From positions 512,001 through 576,000 of the forward strand of contig CM000150.2 of NCBI GenBank assembly GCA_000004695.1: a stretch of DNA of 64,000 nt. The letters are read 5' to 3'. The translations under genes were made by a program, and so were the position numbers. The notes under the pieces were generated by a model that saw only the letters and a list, made by a program, of their open reading frames with translations, did not search any database and had not been told where the DNA came from. This stretch comes from Dictyostelium discoideum (lineage: Eukaryota). Shown here in pieces: positions 1 through 59,070 of the stretch. Each line of letters begins with the position of its first letter. The stretch's first letter is position 1.

Positions 1-2098
1 TCCATCAGTATTTGATTATAAAATAAATCCATCAAATATTATTGTAAATGGATCTGATTTTTGTGATAGTTCTTATTCTTCAAATATTACAATTGATGGT
101 GTTATCATTCTAAATTCAAACTACCAAAAAGATGAAGACTCAATTGTAATTATTTATACTCAACAACACACGACCAAATCATTAATGAAAATTGAAACTA
201 GCAATGTAACTTCTGTTGAAATTGAAATTGTTTTTAAACCAGAACCATTAATTATAAATTCAATTCCATATATTAAAGGTGGTTTAATTATTTTAGAAGG
301 TTCAAGATTATCTTCAAATACAAATAAAAACAATAATAATAATATAATTATTAAAATTGGAAATATTACATGTTCAAACGCAATTTCAATCTCAAATGAA
401 TCAATCACATGTAATTTAAATCCGGGTATATATAATAAATCAGTTCCCTTAAATAATTTACCAGTTTCAGTTACAATTAACAATATTACAAATGAAAATA
501 CATTATTATTTAATTATGGTATGGTCAAATTAAATCCAAATAAATATAGTTTACCAGATCGTGTTTTACAATTAAATGGTGATTGTCTTGGAAATTCAAA
601 TAGTACCATAGTTTATTTAAATGGAAAAGAAACATTATTAAATGATTTAAAAATAAATAACCAAGAAACAACTTTATCATTTAAAATACCAGATGAATTT
701 AAATCAAAATTAAATGTTTCAATCAAGGTAAATGATATTTTATCAAATGAAATTCAAATTGATATTTCATTTTATGCAAGTTATTCTAATGAACAACCAA
801 GTACAAATGGTAATACAAATATAATATTCACATTATATAATATTAAATCTGAAAATTATAATAAAATACCATCAATTATTATAATTCCTGAACAAATTGT
901 AATAAATGGTGTTTCAGTAAATTCACCAACCAATCAAGATGTTCATTCGTATTCATTTTTAATTCCAGCTGGGTGTGGTAAAAAAGATATTCAAATTATA
1001 ATTGGTAGTCAATCATGTTTGTCATCAATTACATACTTTGAACCAATTATTAAAAATTGTTTAGTATCAGGTTTTGATGGTACAAATGGAAATATAATTT
1101 GTGATGGTAGTTTTGGTAATAAAGATTATTTAATTAAATCATCTGTACTTTTTTCAAATGATGAAATTGTACCACCATCAATCAATAGTACAACATTTTC
1201 GTTCCCACTAATATCAGGTTATCACAGTGATGATTTAATTTTTCAAATGTGCGGTGTTCAAAGTAAACCATTTAAATTAAACATCGCACCATCTTTGAAA
1301 AGAATCGATCAAAGTCAAATGGAAACATTGGGTGGTAAATTTTACATTCTTGGCGAATTCTTTGGTGTAAATATAAATTGTAGTGTATTTTGCAATGATA
1401 AAGAATATGAAAAAAAATTTGAAAACTCAAAGACGATTTCATTCGATTTACAAATTCCAGGTCCAAATGATATTACATGTAATTATACATTTGATAATGG
1501 AAAAAATACTGGTGATTTTAAGATTGAATATCCTTTACCATTAATAGAAAATACGAGTTCAATAAATGTAAATGGTGGAAATTTAACAATTTATGGTAAA
1601 AACTTTTATAATGTTTCAAATATCAAAGTTGAAGTTGATAATCAACTAAAATGTAATAATTTTGAATTTATTAATTTAAATAGTTTAACCTGTTTCTTAC
1701 CACCATTTAATGAAACAAGAAAACAATCATTATTTAATGATCAAAAACTATTATTAAATTCATCAACAACTATTTTTAGCAAAAAATTATTATTAAATGT
1801 TACATTTGAAAGTAAAACATGGAGTGGATATATTTTTCAATATTCAAAAGAAGAAATAAAAAATAATGATACAAGTGAAAATTCAACCAATGATATTTTA
1901 AATCATGAAAAAAATAATAATAATAATCAGAAAGATGGAAGTAGTTTAAGTAAAAAAAGTATAATATTATCAATATTATTACCTGGTTTTATTATTTTAG
2001 TAGTTTCTTTAACAATTGTTATTATTGTAATTAAAAGAAATAAAACAAAACATAGTAAAAATATGTCATCAAAAGAGAAAGAATTAATGAAACAATAA
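1..2098 (+). CDS. 5'-truncated copy 1 of a tandemly duplicated type-I membrane glycoprotein with several IPT/TIG-like extracellular repeats (tgr/'tiger'-family-like). The frame is open from window base 2 and the stop is at 2096-2098.
   Basis: Continuous ORF with no stop from position 2. The protein has about 40 N-x-S/T sequons and IPT-like segments (e.g. IINSIPYIKGGLIILEGSRL...ITCNLNPG). It has a single C-terminal TM helix (ILSILLPGFIILVVSLTIVIIVI) followed by a short basic tail (KRNKTKHSKNMSSKEKELMKQ). Nucleotides 1-2040 align almost base-for-base with 3838-5880 of the downstream gene. Confidence 0.6.
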   Translation, partial: PSVFDYKINPSNIIVNGSDFCDSSYSSNITIDGVIILNSNYQKDEDSIVIIYTQQHTTKSLMKIETSNVTSVEIEIVFKPEPLIINSIPYIKGGLIILEGSRLSSNTNKNNNNNIIIKIGNITCSNAISISNESITCNLNPGIYNKSVPLNNLPVSVTINNITNENTLLFNYGMVKLNPNKYSLPDRVLQLNGDCLGNSNSTIVYLNGKETLLNDLKINNQETTLSFKIPDEFKSKLNVSIKVNDILSNEIQIDISFYASYSNEQPSTNGNTNIIFTLYNIKSENYNKIPSIIIIPEQIVINGVSVNSPTNQDVHSYSFLIPAGCGKKDIQIIIGSQSCLSSITYFEPIIKNCLVSGFDGTNGNIICDGSFGNKDYLIKSSVLFSNDEIVPPSINSTTFSFPLISGYHSDDLIFQMCGVQSKPFKLNIAPSLKRIDQSQMETLGGKFYILGEFFGVNINCSVFCNDKEYEKKFENSKTISFDLQIPGPNDITCNYTFDNGKNTGDFKIEYPLPLIENTSSINVNGGNLTIYGKNFYNVSNIKVEVDNQLKCNNFEFINLNSLTCFLPPFNETRKQSLFNDQKLLLNSSTTIFSKKLLLNVTFESKTWSGYIFQYSKEEIKNNDTSENSTNDILNHEKNNNNNQKDGSSLSKKSIILSILLPGFIILVVSLTIVIIVIKRNKTKHSKNMSSKEKELMKQ

Positions 2099-2439: not shown

Positions 2440-2960
2440 TGAAAATCCAATTTTAACTTTGGAGAAGTGGGTGTGTTTTTAATTTTTTTTTTTTGTAAAT
2501 CTAATTATAACTTAGGAGAAGTGGGTGTTTTTTTTTTTTTTTTTTTTTATGAAAGTGTGTTAATGTGTGATGTTTTGATTTGTTAAATGATTTTTTCTCT
2601 TTTAATTCAATTTGTTTTTTTTTAAAATACAATTTAATGTTTTTGATAGTGTGCATTTTTTATTTGTTTTTTTTTTTTTTTTTTTTGGAATGTGTGTTAG
2701 TGTACTATGTTTTATAAGTTATGTGAGTTTGTTGTGTTTTTTCAATTTATTTTATTTAAAATAAAGATAATGTTTTCGATAGTGTGTTATTTTTCAATAT
2801 ATTTTTGTTATCTGAGTTTGAAGAAGTGGGTGTTTTTTCAAATAATTATTGTTTTATGAGTGTTTTTAAGTGGTTAAGTGTGATGAAATTTTTTATTTTT
2901 GTTATTTTAAAAAAAAATACAAAGTTTTTTTGATAGTGTGTTAGTGTGTGTTTATTTAAT
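2440..2960. repeat. Degenerate G+T-rich tandem repeat of about 130 bp, three copies, in the spacer between the two duplicated genes.
   Basis: Recurring motifs: 'ggagaagtgggtgt' near 2463, 2516 and 2823; 'tgatagtgtg' near 2646, 2776 and 2932; 'gtgttagtgt' near 2690 and 2940. Each is embedded in similar 'aaaatacaatttaatgtttttgatagtgtg'-type context. Confidence 0.5.
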
Positions 2961-3176
2961 GTATTTTTATTCAATTTTTTTAATTATTTTTTAATTATAT
3001 TTGAATAAATAATAAAAAAAATAAAACATTAAAATATTTAATTTTTTTTTTTTTTTCATTTGTCAATATTAAAATTTACCAGTATAATTTATTATTTTTA
3101 CCATTCACCAATAAAAAAAAAAATTATTATTTATTTTAAAAATAAAAAACTAAATCTGATTTTAAATAGTTTTACA

Positions 3177-6100
3177 ATGGAGAAAAAATTATTAATAATA
3201 GTTATCATCTTTTTATTTTCAACTATCCAAGTATTTTGTCAAATTGATTATAGTATGTATAAAACAAAAAAACAAACTTTTAATAATTTTTTAAAATATA
3301 TTGTATTAATAATTGAAAACTTTAAATTAAAAATAGAAACATTTGTAATTTCAAATGAAACATACCTATCATACCATTTTCCAGTTGGTAGTGAATATTT
3401 TTCATCATTAAATTTTGAACGTTTCGTAGGTCCATCATTTCAACTGGATTTTGAATGTATTACTTTCAATGGTACAGTTTGTTTTTCTCAAATTAATCAA
3501 GAAAATAAAAAACAATTGTATGGTACATCCATTACCTATACAACAAAAGTAACTATTAGTTTGTATAAGAATAACCTTCCAACTCCAATAGTTTCTTCAC
3601 CTTTCCAACCTCCAACAAAAGGTGGAATCTCAATTTTAAAAGGTACCTATTTAACATTTTCTGAAAGACTTTCCTATTATGAAGTTATCTACCCAAAAAA
3701 ACAAAAGATTGTGATTTCAGATTCAGAATCATTATCATTCGATGCAACAAACGTTAAAGTTAATTGTCCACCTGGTTGTGGTTATCAAATAATTAAATGG
3801 GAGAATGGCCAATTATTTAATTTTAGTTATTCAAATCCATCAGTATTTGATTATAAAATAAATCCATCAAATATTATTGTAAATGGATCTGATTTTTGTG
3901 ATAGTTCTTATTCTTCAAATATTACAATTGATGGTGTTATCATTCCAAATTCAAACTACCAAAAAGATGAAGACTCAATTGTAATTATTTATATTCAACA
4001 ACACACAACCAAATCATTATTGAAAATAGAAACAAGCAATGTAACATCTGTTGAAATTGAAATTGTTTTTAAACCAGAACCATTAATTATAAATTCAATT
4101 CCATATAGTAAAGGTGGTTTAATTATTTTAGATGGTTCAAGATTATCTTCAAATACAAATAAAAACAATAATAATATAATTATTAAAATTGGAAATATTA
4201 CATGTTCAAACGCAATTTCAATCTCAAATGAATCAATCACATGTAATTTAAATCCGGGTATATATAATAAATCAGTTGCCTTAAATAATTTACCAGTTTC
4301 AGTTACAATTAATAATATTACAAATGGAAATACATTATTATTTAATTATGGTATGGTCAAATTAAATCCAAATAAATATAGTTTACCAGATCGTATTTTA
4401 CAATTAAATGGTGATTGTCTCGGAAATTCAAATAGTACTATTGTTTATTTAAATGGAAAAGAAACATTATTAAATGATTTAAAAATAAATAACCAAGAAA
4501 CAACTTTATCATTTAAAATACCAGATGAATTTAAATCAAAATTAAATGTTTCAATCAAGGTAAATGATATTTTATCAAATGAAATTCAAATTGATATTTC
4601 ATTTTATGCAAGTCATTCTAATGAACAACCAAGTACAAATGGTAATACAAATATTATATTCACATTATATAATATTAAATCTGAAAATTATAATAAAATA
4701 CCATCGATTATAATTATTCCTGAACAAATTGTTATTAATGGTGTTTCAGTAAATTCACCAACCAACCAAGATGTTCATTTGTATTCATTTTTAATTCCAG
4801 CTGGGTGTGGTAAAAAAGATATTCAAATTATAATTGGTAGTCAATCATGTTTGTCATCAATTACATACTTTGAACCAATTATTAAAAATTGTTTAGTATC
4901 AGGTTTTGATGGTACAAATGGAAATATAATTTGTGATGGTAGTTTTGGTAATAAAGATTATTTAATTAAATCATCTGTACTTTTTTCAAATGATGAAATT
5001 GTACCACCATCAATCAATAGTACAACATTTTCGTTCCCTCTAATATCAGGTTATCACAGTGATGATTTAATTTTTCAAATGTGCGGTGTTCAAAGTAAAC
5101 CATTTAAATTAAACATCTCACCATCATTAAAAAGAATCAATCAAAGTCAAATGGAAACATTGGGTGGTAAATTTTACATTCTTGGTGAATTCTTTAGTGC
5201 AAATATAAATTGTAGTGTATTTTGCAATGATAAAGAATATGAAAAACATTTTGAAAACTCAAAGACGATTTCATTCGATTTACAAATTCCAGGTCCAAAT
5301 GATATTACATGTAATTATACATTTGATAATGGAAAAAATACTGGTGATTTTAAGATTGAATATCCTTTACCATTAATAGAAAATACGAGTTCAATAAATG
5401 TGAATGGTGGAAATTTAACAATTTATGGTAAAAACTTTTATAATGTTTCAAATATCAAAGTTGAAGTTGATAATCAATTAAAATGTAATAATATTGAATT
5501 TATTAATTTAAACAGTTTAACCTGTTTCTTACCACCATTTAATGAAACAAGAGAGCAATCATTATTTAATGATCAAAAACTATTATTAAATTCATCAACA
5601 ACTATTTTTAGCAAAAAATTATTATTAAATGTTACATTTGAAAGTAAAACATGGAGTGGATATATTTTTCAATATTCAAAAGAAGAAATAAAAAATAATG
5701 GTACAAGTGAAAATTCAAGTAATGATATAATAGATCATGAAAAAAACAATAATACTACAAAAAATGGTAAAGGCGGTATCAATTTAAGTAAAGAAAGTAA
5801 AATAATAATTTCTGTAGTCTTACCTGGTGTTATTATTTTAATAATTTTATCGGTAGTAGTAATCTATCGTATTAGAATAAATAGAATTACACGAAATACA
5901 TATGTGAAAAAAATTAATGAAATGAAAACAATAACACCAGAAGAGAAACGAGATGAAATAGATGAATCAGATGAAATTAAAAAAAAACTTGATATTGAAA
6001 TGTCAGAATTAAGATCCAATCTATTCATACACTCAATCAGTTATACTAACACACTCAAAGAACAACAAATGGAAAGGGATCAAATCAATAAAAGTCCAAG

Positions 6101-6377
6101 TCTACAAATTCAACCACAAAATAATCAATTGAATATAATTAATAATGGTGAAGGTTCAAGTCAACAAATTCAACCACAAAGTAATCAATCAAATATTATT
6201 AATAATGATGAGGGTTCAAGCCACCAATTTCAACCTGAAATTAATCAATCCAATACAATTAATAATAGTGAAGGTTCAAGTCAACAAATTCAACCACAAA
6301 ATAATCAATTGAATATAATTAATAATGATGTGGGTTCAAGTCACCAATCTAAGCAAAATGATAGTACTGGTTGCTGA
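3177..6377 (+). CDS. Full-length copy 2 of the IPT/TIG-repeat type-I membrane glycoprotein (tgr-family-like), 1066 aa. It has a signal peptide, a large glycosylated ectodomain, a TM helix, and a roughly 180-aa cytoplasmic tail containing four 20-aa tandem repeats.
   Basis: The first ATG is at 3177 (the track's 3060 start is a TTG) and gives the signal peptide MEKKLLIIVIIFLFSTIQVFCQ. The ORF is open to the TGA at 6375-6377. The TM helix is IIISVVLPGVIILIILSVVVIY. The tail is rich in acidic residues and carries a (SSQQIQPQNNQLNIINNGEG)x4 repeat. Confidence 0.65.
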   Translation: MEKKLLIIVIIFLFSTIQVFCQIDYSMYKTKKQTFNNFLKYIVLIIENFKLKIETFVISNETYLSYHFPVGSEYFSSLNFERFVGPSFQLDFECITFNGTVCFSQINQENKKQLYGTSITYTTKVTISLYKNNLPTPIVSSPFQPPTKGGISILKGTYLTFSERLSYYEVIYPKKQKIVISDSESLSFDATNVKVNCPPGCGYQIIKWENGQLFNFSYSNPSVFDYKINPSNIIVNGSDFCDSSYSSNITIDGVIIPNSNYQKDEDSIVIIYIQQHTTKSLLKIETSNVTSVEIEIVFKPEPLIINSIPYSKGGLIILDGSRLSSNTNKNNNNIIIKIGNITCSNAISISNESITCNLNPGIYNKSVALNNLPVSVTINNITNGNTLLFNYGMVKLNPNKYSLPDRILQLNGDCLGNSNSTIVYLNGKETLLNDLKINNQETTLSFKIPDEFKSKLNVSIKVNDILSNEIQIDISFYASHSNEQPSTNGNTNIIFTLYNIKSENYNKIPSIIIIPEQIVINGVSVNSPTNQDVHLYSFLIPAGCGKKDIQIIIGSQSCLSSITYFEPIIKNCLVSGFDGTNGNIICDGSFGNKDYLIKSSVLFSNDEIVPPSINSTTFSFPLISGYHSDDLIFQMCGVQSKPFKLNISPSLKRINQSQMETLGGKFYILGEFFSANINCSVFCNDKEYEKHFENSKTISFDLQIPGPNDITCNYTFDNGKNTGDFKIEYPLPLIENTSSINVNGGNLTIYGKNFYNVSNIKVEVDNQLKCNNIEFINLNSLTCFLPPFNETREQSLFNDQKLLLNSSTTIFSKKLLLNVTFESKTWSGYIFQYSKEEIKNNGTSENSSNDIIDHEKNNNTTKNGKGGINLSKESKIIISVVLPGVIILIILSVVVIYRIRINRITRNTYVKKINEMKTITPEEKRDEIDESDEIKKKLDIEMSELRSNLFIHSISYTNTLKEQQMERDQINKSPSLQIQPQNNQLNIINNGEGSSQQIQPQSNQSNIINNDEGSSHQFQPEINQSNTINNSEGSSQQIQPQNNQLNIINNDVGSSHQSKQNDSTGC
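6098..6350 (+). repeat. Coding minisatellite: four tandem copies of a 60-bp unit encoding the 20-aa repeat in the cytoplasmic tail of copy 2.
   Basis: Units 'caaattcaaccacaaaataatcaattgaatataattaataatggtgaaggttcaagtcaa', 'caaattcaaccacaaagtaatcaatcaaatattattaataatgatgagggttcaagccac', and two more, lie in phase. The unit is absent from copy 1. Confidence 0.7.
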
Positions 6378-6709: not shown

Positions 6710-8050
6710 ATGAAAAACAGCTCATCAATGTTAAAAGGAGTTAAATCATTTATTGGTAGTGGAATTTATACAAACAAACCAATATATGATGTAGCAATTG
6801 TTGGTGGGGGTATAGTTGGATTAGCAACAGGTAGAGAATTATTAAAGAGGAATCCAAAATTAAAAATTGTAATACTTGAAAAGGAGAATGAAATTGCACC
6901 ACATCAATCATCACATAATAGTGGTGTAATTCATTGTGGAATTTATTATAAACCAGGATCATTAAGAGCTAAACTTTGTACAAAAGGTTCAAAGTTAATG
7001 TATGACTATTGTAATGAAAATCAAATAAACTATGAAAATTGTGGTAAATTAATTGTTGCAACTAAAAAAGAAGAATTTCAACAATTAGAACAACTCTATA
7101 AAAGAGGTATTGAAAATGGTGTACCAAATATAAAACTATTAGAATCAAAAGAACAACTATTATCAATTGAACCATTTATAAATGGTGGTTTACGTGCAAT
7201 TCATACACCATCAACTGGAATCATTGATTATAAAGAAGTCTCAAAATCATTTGGTAATGATATTACTGAAAAGTTTGGAAAAGATTCAAAATCTGAAATT
7301 AAATTAAATTTTAATGCAAAAAATTTTAAATATAATTCAAATGATAAATTATTATTAATTTCAACTGGTGATGATGATGATGATGAAGAACAACAACAAT
7401 CAATTTTAACCAAATATTCAATTGTATGTGGTGGCATGAATAGTGATAGAATTGCAAAAGTTGCATATGGTAATGATGAACCATCGATTGTACCATTTCG
7501 AGGTAGTTTTTTACAATTTAAACCAGAATTTAGACATTTGATTAAAGGTAATGTTTATCCATTACCAAATGCTTCATTCCCATTTTTAGGTGTTCATTTC
7601 ACAAAGAGGATTAATGGTGAAGTTTGGTTAGGTCCAAATGCGGTATTATCATTCGACAGAGAGGGATACAAATTCACAGATTTCAATCTACACGATACTA
7701 TTGATTTAATTAAAAATCCTGGTTTATTTAAATTGGCCAAAAAACATTGGAAATATGGCTTAGGTGAATTGTATAGAGATTTTAATAAAGATCATTTCAT
7801 TCAACTTTTAAAACCATATATGCCAAATATCACCGTGGACATGTTAGAATATGGAGGTAGTGGTGTTAGAAGTCAAGCAATTTCGAAATCTGGTGATTTA
7901 ATTGAAGATTTCATTTTTGATACACCATCAGATGTTCCAATAATACATGTAAGAAATTCACCTTCTCCTGCTGCAACCTCTTCACTTGCAATTGCAATTG
8001 AAATTGTAGATTTAGCTCAAAATAATTTTAAAAATTTAAATTCTTTATAA
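6710..8050 (+). CDS. l2hgdh: L-2-hydroxyglutarate dehydrogenase (FAD-dependent, mitochondrial type), 446 aa, single exon.
   Basis: N-terminal Rossmann/FAD motif DVAIVGGGIVGLATGRELLKR...LEKENEIAPHQSSHNSGVIHCGIYYKPGSLRAKLC is co-linear with L2HGDH orthologs. ATG at 6710. Confidence 0.88.
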   Translation: MKNSSSMLKGVKSFIGSGIYTNKPIYDVAIVGGGIVGLATGRELLKRNPKLKIVILEKENEIAPHQSSHNSGVIHCGIYYKPGSLRAKLCTKGSKLMYDYCNENQINYENCGKLIVATKKEEFQQLEQLYKRGIENGVPNIKLLESKEQLLSIEPFINGGLRAIHTPSTGIIDYKEVSKSFGNDITEKFGKDSKSEIKLNFNAKNFKYNSNDKLLLISTGDDDDDEEQQQSILTKYSIVCGGMNSDRIAKVAYGNDEPSIVPFRGSFLQFKPEFRHLIKGNVYPLPNASFPFLGVHFTKRINGEVWLGPNAVLSFDREGYKFTDFNLHDTIDLIKNPGLFKLAKKHWKYGLGELYRDFNKDHFIQLLKPYMPNITVDMLEYGGSGVRSQAISKSGDLIEDFIFDTPSDVPIIHVRNSPSPAATSSLAIAIEIVDLAQNNFKNLNSL

Positions 8051-9003: not shown

Positions 9004-10397
9004 GTATTATTAGTATTATTTATTCTATTATTATGTTTTTTACTATCTTCTATATAATTTTCATTAATTTTCTTATTAATTAAAGTAAAATCTAAATTTT
9101 CTTGTTGTTGTTGTTGAGATTGTGTTAATAACTCTCTAAAGTATGGTTTAAGGAAACTAAGCATTGAAGAAAAGAATTTTATACATTCACCATTTGAACC
9201 ATCAGGACGTAAAAAGAAAGGAGAAAAAAAAGTACATTTGAAAACCTCTTTTTGATCAACCCATTCTAAAAACAATTGATCAGTATGTTTCATAGAGGTA
9301 CGATCAACCGATTTAAATAAATCAGGTATATTTGAATCAAATGGTATTGGTGCACAAAATAAAACATACTTTGAATTTGGTATCCAAAATTTTTGAGTTT
9401 TTTCCGATTGAAATAGTTCTCTATACTCTTGAAGTGAATTTTCAAAGATGAAACCAGTCTCTTCATTGAATTCTCTGGTGGCGGTATCTATTGCAATCTC
9501 ACCATTTTCAATCTTTCCACCAAATGGTAAGAAAACTTCATTGGTAAGCGATGAATTTGGATTCTTTTTTCTCTTTTCAGTTCTATCTTCACATCCCATT
9601 AAAAATTTGATTTTACCTTGATCAATTGAAAATAATAAAACACCAGCTGCTTTATAATTTTTATCAACTTCATCTGGTACTATAGTAAATGATGAATTTT
9701 TTGAAAAGATACCTTGAGTTTTATTTTCTTTTTGTTGTGGTTGTTGTTGTTCATTTTGTAGTTGTTCATGTTGTAGTTGTTCATGTTGTAGTTGTTCGTG
9801 TTGTCCACTGCTATAATTTCTTTGTTGTTGTCTATATGATGAAGATGATGAAGATGATGATGAAGATGAAGATTTATAACTATTTACATAATTTTTTTGT
9901 TCATTACCATAATAATTTGCTGATCGATTATTTTGTCTACTCTCTGAATAATAGTCTCTGCTATTGTCATCATAATCCTTTGTGCTATTATAACTTGATC
10001 TTTGTTGTTGTTGTGTAGAATAATTTCTATCTTGGTCATATCCTCTGTTGTTATTATTACCATAATAATCATCTCTATAATTTTGGTAGTGTCTGCTTTG
10101 ACTGTTATGGTCAAATCTAACTTGGCCACTATTGTAGTTATCATTGTAACTGTTGTTATTGTAATTGTCGTATCTATTGTTATTATTACTATTATTATTA
10201 TTATAGTTATTATTATAGTTATTATTATTATTATTATAGTTATTATTATTATTATAATCTCTATTATAATCTCTATTATTGAAGCTATTACGATCCCCCA
10301 TTGTTGAATATTTATTAAAATTTAGAAGGAAAGGTTTGGTATTTGAAATTGAGTTTTTCAATTGAATAGTTGATAATTGAATTCTAGAAGGGATCAT
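8751..10397 (-). CDS. Nudix hydrolase-domain protein with a roughly 230-aa Asn/Gln/Tyr/Ser-rich (prion-like) N-terminal region, 548 aa.
   Basis: Canonical Nudix box G-x5-E-x7-REUxEExGU is present as GGKIENGEIAIDTATREFNEETGF. Real ATG (minus strand) at 10397. Low-complexity N-terminus includes (QHEQL)x3. Confidence 0.7.
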
Positions 10398-44389: not shown

Positions 44390-44589
44390 TTTCGTTTAAA
44401 TATTTTTAATTTAACAATTTGGAAAAAAATAAAAAAAACGGAAAAAGAAGACATTTTTAAAATTTTATTTTATTTTATTTTATTTTATTTTTAATATGGA
44501 TTTAGTATAGATAAATAAACACTCAAAAATACCATTTTAAAAAAAAAAAAAATTTGATTTAAATGATTTGCTTGGAATTTCACACATTT

Positions 44590-45274
44590 CAAAAATTAAA
44601 TCATCGCTATGATATCCTGATATTAATGGGAATGATAAAGTGGTACTATTAATTAATGGTGTAATAATATTGAATTTAATAACATGTAATTTACCACCAA
44701 TTAATGAAACAAACCAATCATCAATTTTTAATCAAAAATTACTAATAAACACAACAACCACAACTTTTAGTAAAAAGTTATTATTAAAAATAACATTTGA
44801 AGTAAATCATGGAGTGGATTGATTTTTCAATATTCTAAAGATGAAATTCAATATTATGATGATAGTGAAAACTCAAGTGGTAAAACTTTTAATGCTAGCA
44901 CAAATCAAAATAACAAAGGAAACAAGGGAAATGGAATTAATATGAGTATAAGAGATATAGTGTTAATTTGTACTTTAGTGCCTTCTTGTATAATCATAGT
45001 AGTATTTTCGGTAATGGTTTTTTTAAGAATAAGAAGAAAGAGAATAGAACAAATAAATTATCTCAAAAGTATTAAAAAAAGAAATTATTTATCACAAGAA
45101 CAAAAAGAAAAAAATCGTTTAAAAGCAAAAGAAGTTGACAATGAGATCCAAAAAAAAATATTTGAAAATAAATGTTTCATGCTTCAATATGCTACCAGGA
45201 ATGCAACTTATAGAAGTACTGTGGCATGGATGGAAAAAGAGTTAAAAAAACAAGAAGATCAATTAAAAAGTTAA
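44590..45274 (+). pseudogene. Frameshifted 3' remnant of a third tgr-like IPT/TIG glycoprotein gene: last ectodomain segment, TM helix, and a distinct cytoplasmic tail.
   Basis: NLITCNLPPINETNQSSIFNQKLLINTTTTTFSKKLLLKITFE matches NSLTCFLPPFNETRKQSLFNDQKLLLNSSTTIFSKKLLLNVTFE of the genes at 1-6377. At about 44813-44822 a 1-bp deletion relative to the intact copies ('gaagtaaatcatgg' versus 'gaaagtaaaacatgg') shifts the frame and creates a TGA. The +1 frame then continues as IFQYSKDEIQYY..., TM helix IVLICTLVPSCIIIVVFSVMVF, and tail RIRRKRIEQINYLKSIKK.... No 5' two-thirds of the gene is present. Confidence 0.55.

Positions 45275-52276: not shown

Positions 52277-59070
<6,794 letters not shown>

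Follow-up and report, generated by a model that had tools for sequence, protein, structure and literature searches.

A Tgr-family gene with a tandem repeat in its last exon

We analyzed a 64,000-nt stretch of chromosome 1 of Dictyostelium discoideum AX4 (contig CM000150.2, positions 512,001 to 576,000; assembly GCA_000004695.1), which is referred to as the window and in whose own numbering positions are given. The window has a GC content of ~20% and is rich in poly-A/T and AAT/CAA runs. Near its start two tandem genes of the Tgr family, termed copy 1 and copy 2, lie on the plus strand, and the last exon of copy 2 contains an array of 60-nt repeats to which an earlier note on this DNA had drawn attention. 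This array, the gene that carries it and its counterparts in other genomes are the subject of this study.

Removal of an 84-nt intron from the interval 3177-6377 gives a 1038-aa protein that is exactly XP_647198.2 / UniProt Q55GI6 (P0001), repeat array included, and a second NCBI genome record carries the identical 1038-aa protein (KAM9943783.1). Exon 1 (3177-3252) holds the ATG at 3177 and the signal peptide MEKKLLIIVIIFLFSTIQVFCQIDY, and is followed by the intron (3253-3336, GTATGT...TAG, 10.7% GC), which an older gene model (P0023, 1066 aa) leaves unspliced. By sequence inspection the N-terminus of the protein, MEKKLLIIVIIFLFSTIQVFC, reads as a signal peptide. The ectodomain (3337-5801) consists of Ig-like domains of the TgrO1 type, matches Pfam PF24612 Ig_TgrO1 in three stretches (E = 5.5e-44, 148.7 bits with a cut-off of 27.9), and contains 28 N-x-S/T sequons and 18 Cys residues. 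It is followed by a transmembrane (TM) segment, IIISVVLPGVIILIILSVVVIY, at 5802-5867 (P0001 aa 848-869), with a mean Kyte-Doolittle hydropathy of 3.2 and a helix predicted by AlphaFold2 (AF2) at a predicted local distance difference test (pLDDT) score of ~91. Downstream lies a membrane-proximal module (5868-6098, aa 870-946) in which a basic stop-transfer stretch precedes a charged helix (~5937-6092), as seen in the AF2 model. Judged by these sequence features, copy 2 is a Tgr-family gene of the TgrO1-like or "AHIO" type whose product is a predicted type I membrane protein. It is labeled in databases as an "immunoglobulin E-set domain-containing protein", and a literature search by accession and by tgr gene name found no relevant earlier report of it.

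Tandem Repeats Finder (TRF) detects a single array at 6097-6347 with a period of 60, 4.2 copies, 82% matches, 0% indels and a score of 355, which makes it the top-scoring long-period repeat of the window. Self-identity at period 60 is 0.82, compared with 0.32 +/- 0.03 and a maximum of 0.43 in 5000 shuffles (z ~16). The array comprises four full units and a partial fifth on the plus strand: unit 1 (SLQIQPQNNQLNIINNGEGS, 6099-6158), unit 2 (SQQIQPQSNQSNIINNDEGS, 6159-6218), unit 3 (SHQFQPEINQSNTINNSEGS, 6219-6278) and unit 4 (SQQIQPQNNQLNIINNDVGS, 6279-6338), after which codon register places the partial fifth unit (SHQ...), the C-terminal peptide SKQNDSTGC and the stop within 6339-6377. The partial unit and the C-terminal peptide together read SHQSKQNDSTGC (6339-6374), with the stop codon at 6375-6377. 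The four 20-aa peptides given in the earlier note match the translations exactly, but its start at 6098 lies one base ahead of the codon register, which begins at 6099. The same note called units 1 and 4 nearly identical. They are indeed the closest pair, but four differences (93.3% identity) make that description too strong; units 2 and 4 share 91.7% identity, and unit 3 is the outlier at 78-82%.

Several lines of evidence establish that the array is coding. Only one of the six reading frames is open across it, and the other two plus-strand frames contain ~2-3 stops per unit. Its GC content of 26.7% is exon-like, as the intron has 10.7% and the 3' intergenic sequence 11.4%. The earlier note had recognized that a repeat lying out of frame with the TM exon, for example because of an unnoticed intron, would not be coding. 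A continuous open reading frame (ORF) at 3060-6377 holds both the array and the TM segment (5802-5867) in the same frame, so no intron is required, and a scan of the tail for donor-like motifs and AT-rich GT..AG intervals found none. An unnoticed intron or a different frame for the array is therefore ruled out by the continuous ORF, the lack of any intron-like interval, the exon-like GC content and the annotated protein. ORF, frame and annotated protein together bear out the description of four in-frame 60-bp repeats in coding sequence.

Within the window the repeat is confined to copy 2, as had been proposed. An nhmmer profile of the unit matches only the four units (E ~1e-17 to 1e-18), with the next-best match, at 1e-3, falling in a low-complexity stretch of the ectodomain, and neither tblastn nor nhmmer detects a relic of the long tail after copy 1 or elsewhere in the window. 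With units of 10-100 bp, at least three copies, a length that is a multiple of 3, a coding frame, polymorphism and footprints of exchange (the last two detailed below), the array has every property that defines a coding minisatellite. It is a variable number tandem repeat (VNTR) in the last exon of a Tgr-family gene.

Unit number in other Dictyostelium genomes

Relatives of copy 2 were found by a full-protein search of recent Dictyostelium genomes, apparently the set described in PMC12745789, and units were counted with a profile hidden Markov model (HMM) of the unit on proteins and with TRF at period 60 on DNA. The AX4 array contains 4 units by HMM and 4.2 copies by TRF. Two other D. discoideum genomes contain 8 units (8.2 copies; GCA_054859355.1, ACTFIW) and 9 units (9.2 copies; GCA_054859385.1, ACTFIR). 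Two D. cf. discoideum genomes contain 8 units each, with 8.4 copies in ACTFIZ and 7.7 copies in ACTFIY, and D. citrinum contains 3 units (3.5 copies). An additional D. cf. discoideum fragment, P0031, has 6 units as counted by eye. In both other D. discoideum genomes, in ACTFIZ and in D. citrinum, the gene with the repeat is located immediately upstream of the DAO-family gene that also follows copy 2 in the window. Repeat number, which the earlier note had proposed as a source of length polymorphism, thus differs at a syntenic locus among three D. discoideum genomes with 4, 8 and 9 units. The tail ORF is open to its stop in all six genomes examined at the DNA level, and the D. cf. discoideum gene models are fragmented.

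Relatives in D. firmibasis carry an array of 48 nt x 2.8 whose consensus resembles that of the 60-nt unit by inspection (GACGAAGTGGGTTCAAGTAACCAATTTCAA versus GATGAAGGTTCAAGTCAACAATTTCAA). On D. firmibasis contig CM069770.1 a same-strand cluster (L007 102-15334) contains three or more Tgr genes of ~1000 aa. The 48-nt x 2.8 tail minisatellite lies in the middle gene, at 9935-10073. No DAO gene was found within 7 kb of the relatives in D. firmibasis, so the 48-nt array cannot be called a strict orthologue. The divergence of D. discoideum and D. firmibasis has been estimated at 50-100 million years (PMC12745789), and a homologous D. firmibasis array implies that the array predates this split and that its period has since changed.

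The presence of 8 units in two D. cf. discoideum genomes would favor a contraction in AX4. However, the D. cf. discoideum units resemble those of their own array most, which weakens this inference.

The unit HMM detects no such unit in the more distant Tgr paralogues (P0009-P0022). An exhaustive phmmer search of 1.84 billion representatives with the 172-aa tail returned only P0031 and one spurious match, and a tail profile search returned only P0031, a member of the same clade. P0032 was rejected as a tail homologue: this animal-type protein is unrelated, has a 20-aa repeat of its own and matches by chance periodicity.

Footprints of exchange within the array

Comparison of individual units gives an indication of how the array changes. 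AX4 unit 1 best matches unit 1 or unit 6 of the long (8- and 9-unit) alleles (~90%), and AX4 units 2 and 3 correspond to units 2 and 5 of these alleles, with identities of 97% and 95-98%, respectively. Unit 4 appears composite: its nucleotides 1-49 differ from AX4 unit 1 by a single base, and its final 22 nt match the terminal unit of the long alleles without a difference. Clustering of the differences lends modest support (p = 0.02 and p = 0.065), so that a chimeric origin of this unit is suggestive. In ACTFIR the first 21 nt of the extra unit (unit 8, 19 aa) are those of the terminal partial unit, and the remainder is unit-6-like, which is the signature of out-of-register exchange.

A higher-order period is also present. 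In ACTFIR a 120-nt period matches better (88%) than the 60-nt period (78%), and ACTFIY has a 120-nt period as well, indicating that changes often involve two units at once. The chimeric units in AX4 and ACTFIR together with the 120-nt period are footprints of the unequal exchange that the earlier note had postulated from units 1 and 4. Units of ACTFIW and ACTFIR retain one-to-one positional orthology (90-100% identity). In comparisons between species, the best match of a unit lies within its own array, which indicates that arrays turn over in the longer term. The array would thus grow, shrink and be patched by unequal recombination, slippage and conversion between units, in steps that may often comprise two units (120 nt), yielding alleles of 4-9 units within a species.

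Substitution pattern of the tail

Ratios of nonsynonymous to synonymous substitution (dN/dS) were estimated by the Nei-Gojobori method for AX4 against the two other D. discoideum genomes. The neighboring DAO gene has a dN/dS of 0.05-0.06 and the Tgr ectodomain one of 0.14-0.48. The ratio rises to 0.88-0.92 in the array and to ~2 in the membrane-proximal tail (5883-6098, P0001 aa 875-946), where 20-24 nonsynonymous changes stand against 2.5 synonymous changes. Constraint on the array is significantly weaker than on the DAO gene (Fisher p = 7e-6) and marginally weaker than on the ectodomain (p = 0.04). The membrane-proximal tail also differs from the ectodomain (Fisher p = 0.002), which points to relaxed or positive selection on this helical segment, with small counts. 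A separate observation is that dS in the DAO gene is 0.08-0.09 (6710-8050 compared with L001 11830-13173 and L002 11867-13195), as expected if these strains are well diverged from AX4 or if the region contains old haplotypes.

Departures from the unit consensus are about equally frequent at second and third codon positions, and the residues of the array evolve almost neutrally. All differences in array length are multiples of 3, and the chance that 172-192 codons would stay open at the local intergenic composition is ~1e-8 to 1e-9. With an open frame that is kept and residues that are weakly constrained, what is conserved is openness, a Q/N/S-rich acidic composition, a loose skeleton and the C-terminal end. 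The D. discoideum alleles and ACTFIZ share this conserved end, ...NNDVGSSHQxxQNxSTG[C/W].

Topology, structure and composition of the tail

The array is predicted to lie in the cytoplasm from an N-terminal signal peptide, an ectodomain rich in sequons and Cys, a single TM helix and a basic stretch, RIRINRITRNTYVKK, C-terminal to it. In particular, the protein has one strongly hydrophobic segment (aa 848-869), which is followed by the basic stretch and is helical in the AF2 model. This predicted type I topology agrees with the cytoplasmic location assigned to the repeat in the earlier note.

The AF2 model, computed for the TM segment plus tail from a single sequence, contains a TM/juxtamembrane helix and then a second helix at model residues 50-101 with pLDDT values of up to 98. 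From model residue 105 onward pLDDT falls below 50 without secondary structure. As the array starts at model residue 104, it is probably intrinsically disordered. Its composition is 44% Q+N (35 Q/N in 80 residues) with no Lys, Arg or Tyr, and together with the predicted disorder this exceeds the 30 Q/N per 80 residues by which Q/N-rich prion-like composition is defined.

A scan of the units for Tyr-based, PxxP, NPxY, dileucine, basophilic and proline-directed kinase motifs detected none, and YxxPhi and NPxY motifs are likewise missing from the whole tail. The only motif that recurs is [DE]xx[ST] (DEGS/EGSS), which occurs once or twice per unit. Consequently, of the phosphorylation motifs for which a scan had been suggested, the acidic one is present and the others scanned are not. 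The parallel suggestion of SH2-like docking fails for AX4: a phosphotyrosine docking repeat was rejected because the 80-aa AX4 array contains no Tyr.

Tails of paralogues share the proximal helical module, which can be aligned, and then continue into differing low-complexity repeats at the same position. For example, one relative has (KESLE)n followed by NDEGSS, and others have Pro-rich SPPS/LPSP runs. A shared module with differing repeats indicates that a labile repeat region after the helix is general in this branch of the Tgr family.

Possible functions of the array

From an array whose anatomy, frame, polymorphism, exchange footprints and near-neutral substitution are directly observed, we infer a role as a spacer. 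We consider it reasonably probable that the VNTR supplies an intrinsically disordered segment of variable length that acts as a spacer or as a weakly multivalent region. Each 60-nt unit would contribute 20 residues that are rich in Gln, Asn and Ser, mildly acidic and devoid of Lys, Arg and Tyr, and the resulting stretch would sit between the helical membrane-proximal module and a short C-terminal peptide, both of which are conserved. Selection would preserve the open reading frame and the composition of the array, with individual residues barely constrained. It is this combination of maintained openness and composition with little constraint on residues that makes a spacer or weakly multivalent region more likely than a string of specific docking sites.

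Four points weigh against this interpretation. The AF2 model derives from a single sequence, and low pLDDT is a mere proxy for disorder. The dN/dS estimates are imprecise, as they rest on 2.5-4.5 synonymous differences. The unit skeleton is well kept over 35 units (Q5 94%, N9 89%, Q10 97%, N15 97% and S20 91%). Additionally, an acidic-Gly-Ser-Ser core (DEGSS/DEVGSS) recurs even in D. firmibasis paralogues and could be a real short linear motif.

The likeliest alternative is that the units are functional short linear motifs, either the acidic-Gly-Ser-Ser D/E-x-x-S or an I-N-N patch or both, which would form a multivalent phospho-docking scaffold with unit number setting signaling strength. The D/E-x-x-S of the units is presumably a casein-kinase-1-type acidophilic consensus, a short and degenerate pattern. 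[DE]xx[ST] is the one motif that recurs, and E18, G19, S20 and S1 rank high in conservation, at 68-100% across D. discoideum units. DE(V)GSS is shared by the D. firmibasis 48-nt repeat and by P0013 (NDEGSS), and P0011 has a weaker version of it (IEASSS). An activating mutation of TgrB1, L846F, falls in the cytoplasmic domain of that protein (PMC12142906). However, a dN/dS of ~0.9 with as many second-position as third-position changes is not what specific docking sites would predict, and a twofold range of unit number is tolerated within one species. The units also offer no Tyr, PxxP, NPxY, dileucine, basophilic or proline-directed site, and recent duplication, rather than constraint, can explain their similarity. 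A docking scaffold is thus possible but doubtful. The earlier note spoke of a signaling tail; the tail is real, but no homology or motif supports signaling. The phmmer search with the tail, which did not include a direct comparison with TgrB1, matched no other Tgr protein outside the clade. In the literature searched, signaling is attributed only to TgrB1, and TgrAHIO proteins are functionally unknown (PMC12745789).

Another possibility is that the array is a Q/N-rich prion-like or condensation-prone domain, so that clustering of ectodomains at cell-cell contacts would drive assembly of the tails, more readily with longer arrays. The 35 Q/N in 80 residues and the predicted disorder are in keeping with this proposal, as is the doubling of the domain in long alleles. 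However, every unit contains regularly spaced Pro, Gly, Glu and Asp, and such spacing counteracts amyloid formation. D. discoideum is rich in prion-like domains, but with Q/N-rich regions in ~1/4 of its proteome the composition is not distinctive (PMC11537047, PMC13093961). We regard assembly of this kind as improbable.

It is also hard to credit that the array has no function at all, as tolerated junk in a gene drifting toward a pseudogene in a birth-and-death family. The dN/dS ratios of the array (~0.9) and of the proximal tail (~2) would suit such drift, as would the fragmented gene models in D. cf. discoideum and the many fragments and pseudogenes of the TgrAHIO clade (PMC12745789). Nevertheless, the tail ORF is intact in six of six genomes, for which the neutral chance is ~1e-8 or less per long allele; the GC content is exon-like and a conserved C-terminal peptide follows the array; and a homologous array persists in D. 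firmibasis, which is an estimated 50-100 million years diverged from AX4 (PMC12745789). That the count of four is instead an assembly artefact is no easier to accept, since two NCBI genome records contain the identical 1038-aa protein and the other alleles are taken from recent assemblies of a kind called high-quality and repeat-spanning (PMC12745789).

The short-tailed tandem paralogue

Copy 1 is represented in the window by its 3' part (1-2098, plus strand; ORF 185-2098), as the gene extends past the window start. It corresponds to P0004 (XP_647197.1, 890 aa) and has the same ectodomain as copy 2, its own TM segment at ~1973-2029 and a 22-aa tail without the repeat, IKRNKTKHSKNMSSKEKELMKQ. 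Both ORFs match Pfam Ig_TgrO1, with E values of 5.5e-44 and 3.7e-21. The two genes lie 1.08 kb apart in tandem on the plus strand and not head-to-head, a layout that would fit the description of the tgrA cluster. Their DNA is ~97% identical up to ~1884/5716 and ~70% identical across the TM segment, and their tails, of 22 residues in copy 1 and 169 in copy 2, are unrelated.

Comparison of the ectodomains at both loci (window 1-2098 and 3177-5801; L001 4383-7127 and 8001-10615) revealed that up to position ~2400 of the coding sequence (CDS) paralogues within a genome are 95-100% identical at the nucleotide level versus 89-97% for orthologues between genomes. Past CDS ~2400 the pattern reverses, with copy 1 and copy 2 at 66-86% and orthologues at 83-96%. 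As paralogues are closer than orthologues in the ectodomain only, it seems that gene conversion homogenizes the ectodomains and stops at the stalk (~1884/5716), so that long- and short-tail forms are kept. The ACTFIR genome has a single gene at the locus (L002 8001-11501) with a TM segment and tail of the copy 2 type. Over the first ~600 nt of its coding sequence this gene shares 97-100% identity with copy 1 of ACTFIW, and no copy 1 was found within 8 kb of it. From its sequence this gene looks like the product of a fusion/deletion by unequal crossing-over between the tandem paralogues. A short-tail gene within +/-8 kb was found only in AX4 and ACTFIW, and the repeat-bearing tail therefore looks ancestral.

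These features allow a more speculative proposal, in which the tandem genes constitute a paired-receptor system: the converted ectodomains would see the same partner, conversion would end at the stalk, and VNTR length (4-9 units) would tune the output of the long-tail form through acidic Ser sites or Q/N-rich avidity. We hold this to be rather unlikely. Neither tail contains a motif resembling an immunoreceptor tyrosine-based inhibitory or activation motif (ITIM/ITAM), and neither TM segment contains a charged residue.

Other features of the window

Three exact GAAGTGGGTGT boxes in the intergenic region between copy 1 and copy 2 (2464-2474, 2518-2528 and 2823-2833, plus strand) form a candidate promoter element of copy 2. 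Four boxes are found when up to one mismatch is allowed, compared with 0.23 expected, and orthologous loci of the other D. discoideum genomes retain the box at a distance of ~355-370 nt before the ATG. The box may be a G-box-type developmental promoter element. The boxes fall among intergenic repeats at 2432-2794.

Copy 2 is followed by the DAO-family gene, which is L-2-hydroxyglutarate-dehydrogenase-like, at 6710-8050. Further away, short weak tblastn matches to the Tgr ectodomain on both strands at 44557-44831 (57% over ~40 aa, E ~1e-4) possibly mark a decayed tgr fragment. The interval 53325-57655 contains very long trinucleotide arrays (TTG x 57, ATT x 43, TTG x 37 and TAT x 83), which would encode runs of the poly-Q/poly-N type on the minus strand and are the source of low-identity tblastn matches to the Q/N-rich tail.

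Comparison with known systems

Coding VNTRs have well-known examples in the 48-bp VNTR in exon 3 of human DRD4, which encodes a cytoplasmic loop, in the 60-bp/20-aa VNTR of MUC1 and in the intragenic repeats of the yeast FLO/ALS genes. The Tgr array resembles all of these in its in-frame unit whose length is a multiple of 3, its polymorphic number, its change by unequal recombination or slippage and its flexible low-complexity product. It shares its unit size with MUC1, by coincidence, and its cytoplasmic location with DRD4. Unlike the extracellular, glycosylated repeats of MUC1 and FLO/ALS, the Tgr array would be cytoplasmic and is Q/N-rich, and it has no sequence relationship with DRD4, MUC1 or FLO/ALS. 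Coding VNTRs in receptors and surface proteins have been described previously (PMC1273636, PMC6162428).

With the Q/N-rich prion-like regions of D. discoideum (PMC11537047, PMC13093961) the array has in common its 44% Q+N, its predicted disorder and an origin from expansion-prone AT-rich repeats. Most such regions are homopolymer or trinucleotide runs. In contrast, the array is built of a 20-residue unit in which Pro, Gly, Glu, Asp and Ile occupy regular positions and which is encoded by a 60-nt minisatellite, and this unit can be traced to before the D. firmibasis split.

The long-tail and short-tail arrangement recalls the paired immune receptors KIR2DL/KIR2DS, Ly49 and SIRP. In each case adjacent paralogues have near-identical ectodomains, maintained here by apparent gene conversion, and differing TM segments or tails. 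The Tgr pair departs from them in having no ITIM/ITAM-like motif or charged TM residue, so the likeness is architectural only.

Within its own family, the natural comparison is with TgrB1/TgrC1, the allorecognition receptor-ligand pair of the tgr ("tiger") genes of D. discoideum, for which divergence between strains is high and evolution is driven by recombination (PMC12745789; bioRxiv 10.1101/2025.10.22.684067). Copy 2 resembles this pair in its signal peptide, its ectodomain of the Ig-like/IPT/E-set kind (here Pfam Ig_TgrO1), its single TM segment and its cytoplasmic tail, and its ectodomain, with a dN/dS well above that of the neighboring gene, recalls their divergence. In contrast to TgrB1/TgrC1, copy 2 belongs to the TgrO1-like ("AHIO") group of unknown function (PMC12745789), and copies 1 and 2 are in tandem on one strand whereas tgrB1 and tgrC1 are head-to-head with a shared promoter. 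Neither of the papers on tgr evolution whose text was searched for repeats mentions a tail VNTR in tgr genes.

In this repeat-rich genome a Q/N-rich coding repeat of variable number is ordinary and to be expected, and it changes no current view. The tgr family holds the only proven self/non-self recognition genes of Dictyostelium, and its TgrAHIO branch, for which no function is known, is undergoing rapid expansion (PMC12745789). A tail that differs between strains in steps of 20 residues provides a simple genotyping marker, and alleles of 4, 8 and 9 units constitute a natural series for asking whether the cytoplasmic side of Tgr proteins matters. A more interesting lead than the repeat itself is the pair of long- and short-tail genes, in which ectodomains are homogenized and tails are kept apart. 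If the paired-receptor reading were true, a member of the kin-recognition family would gain a quantitative dial that is heritable and mutates fast.

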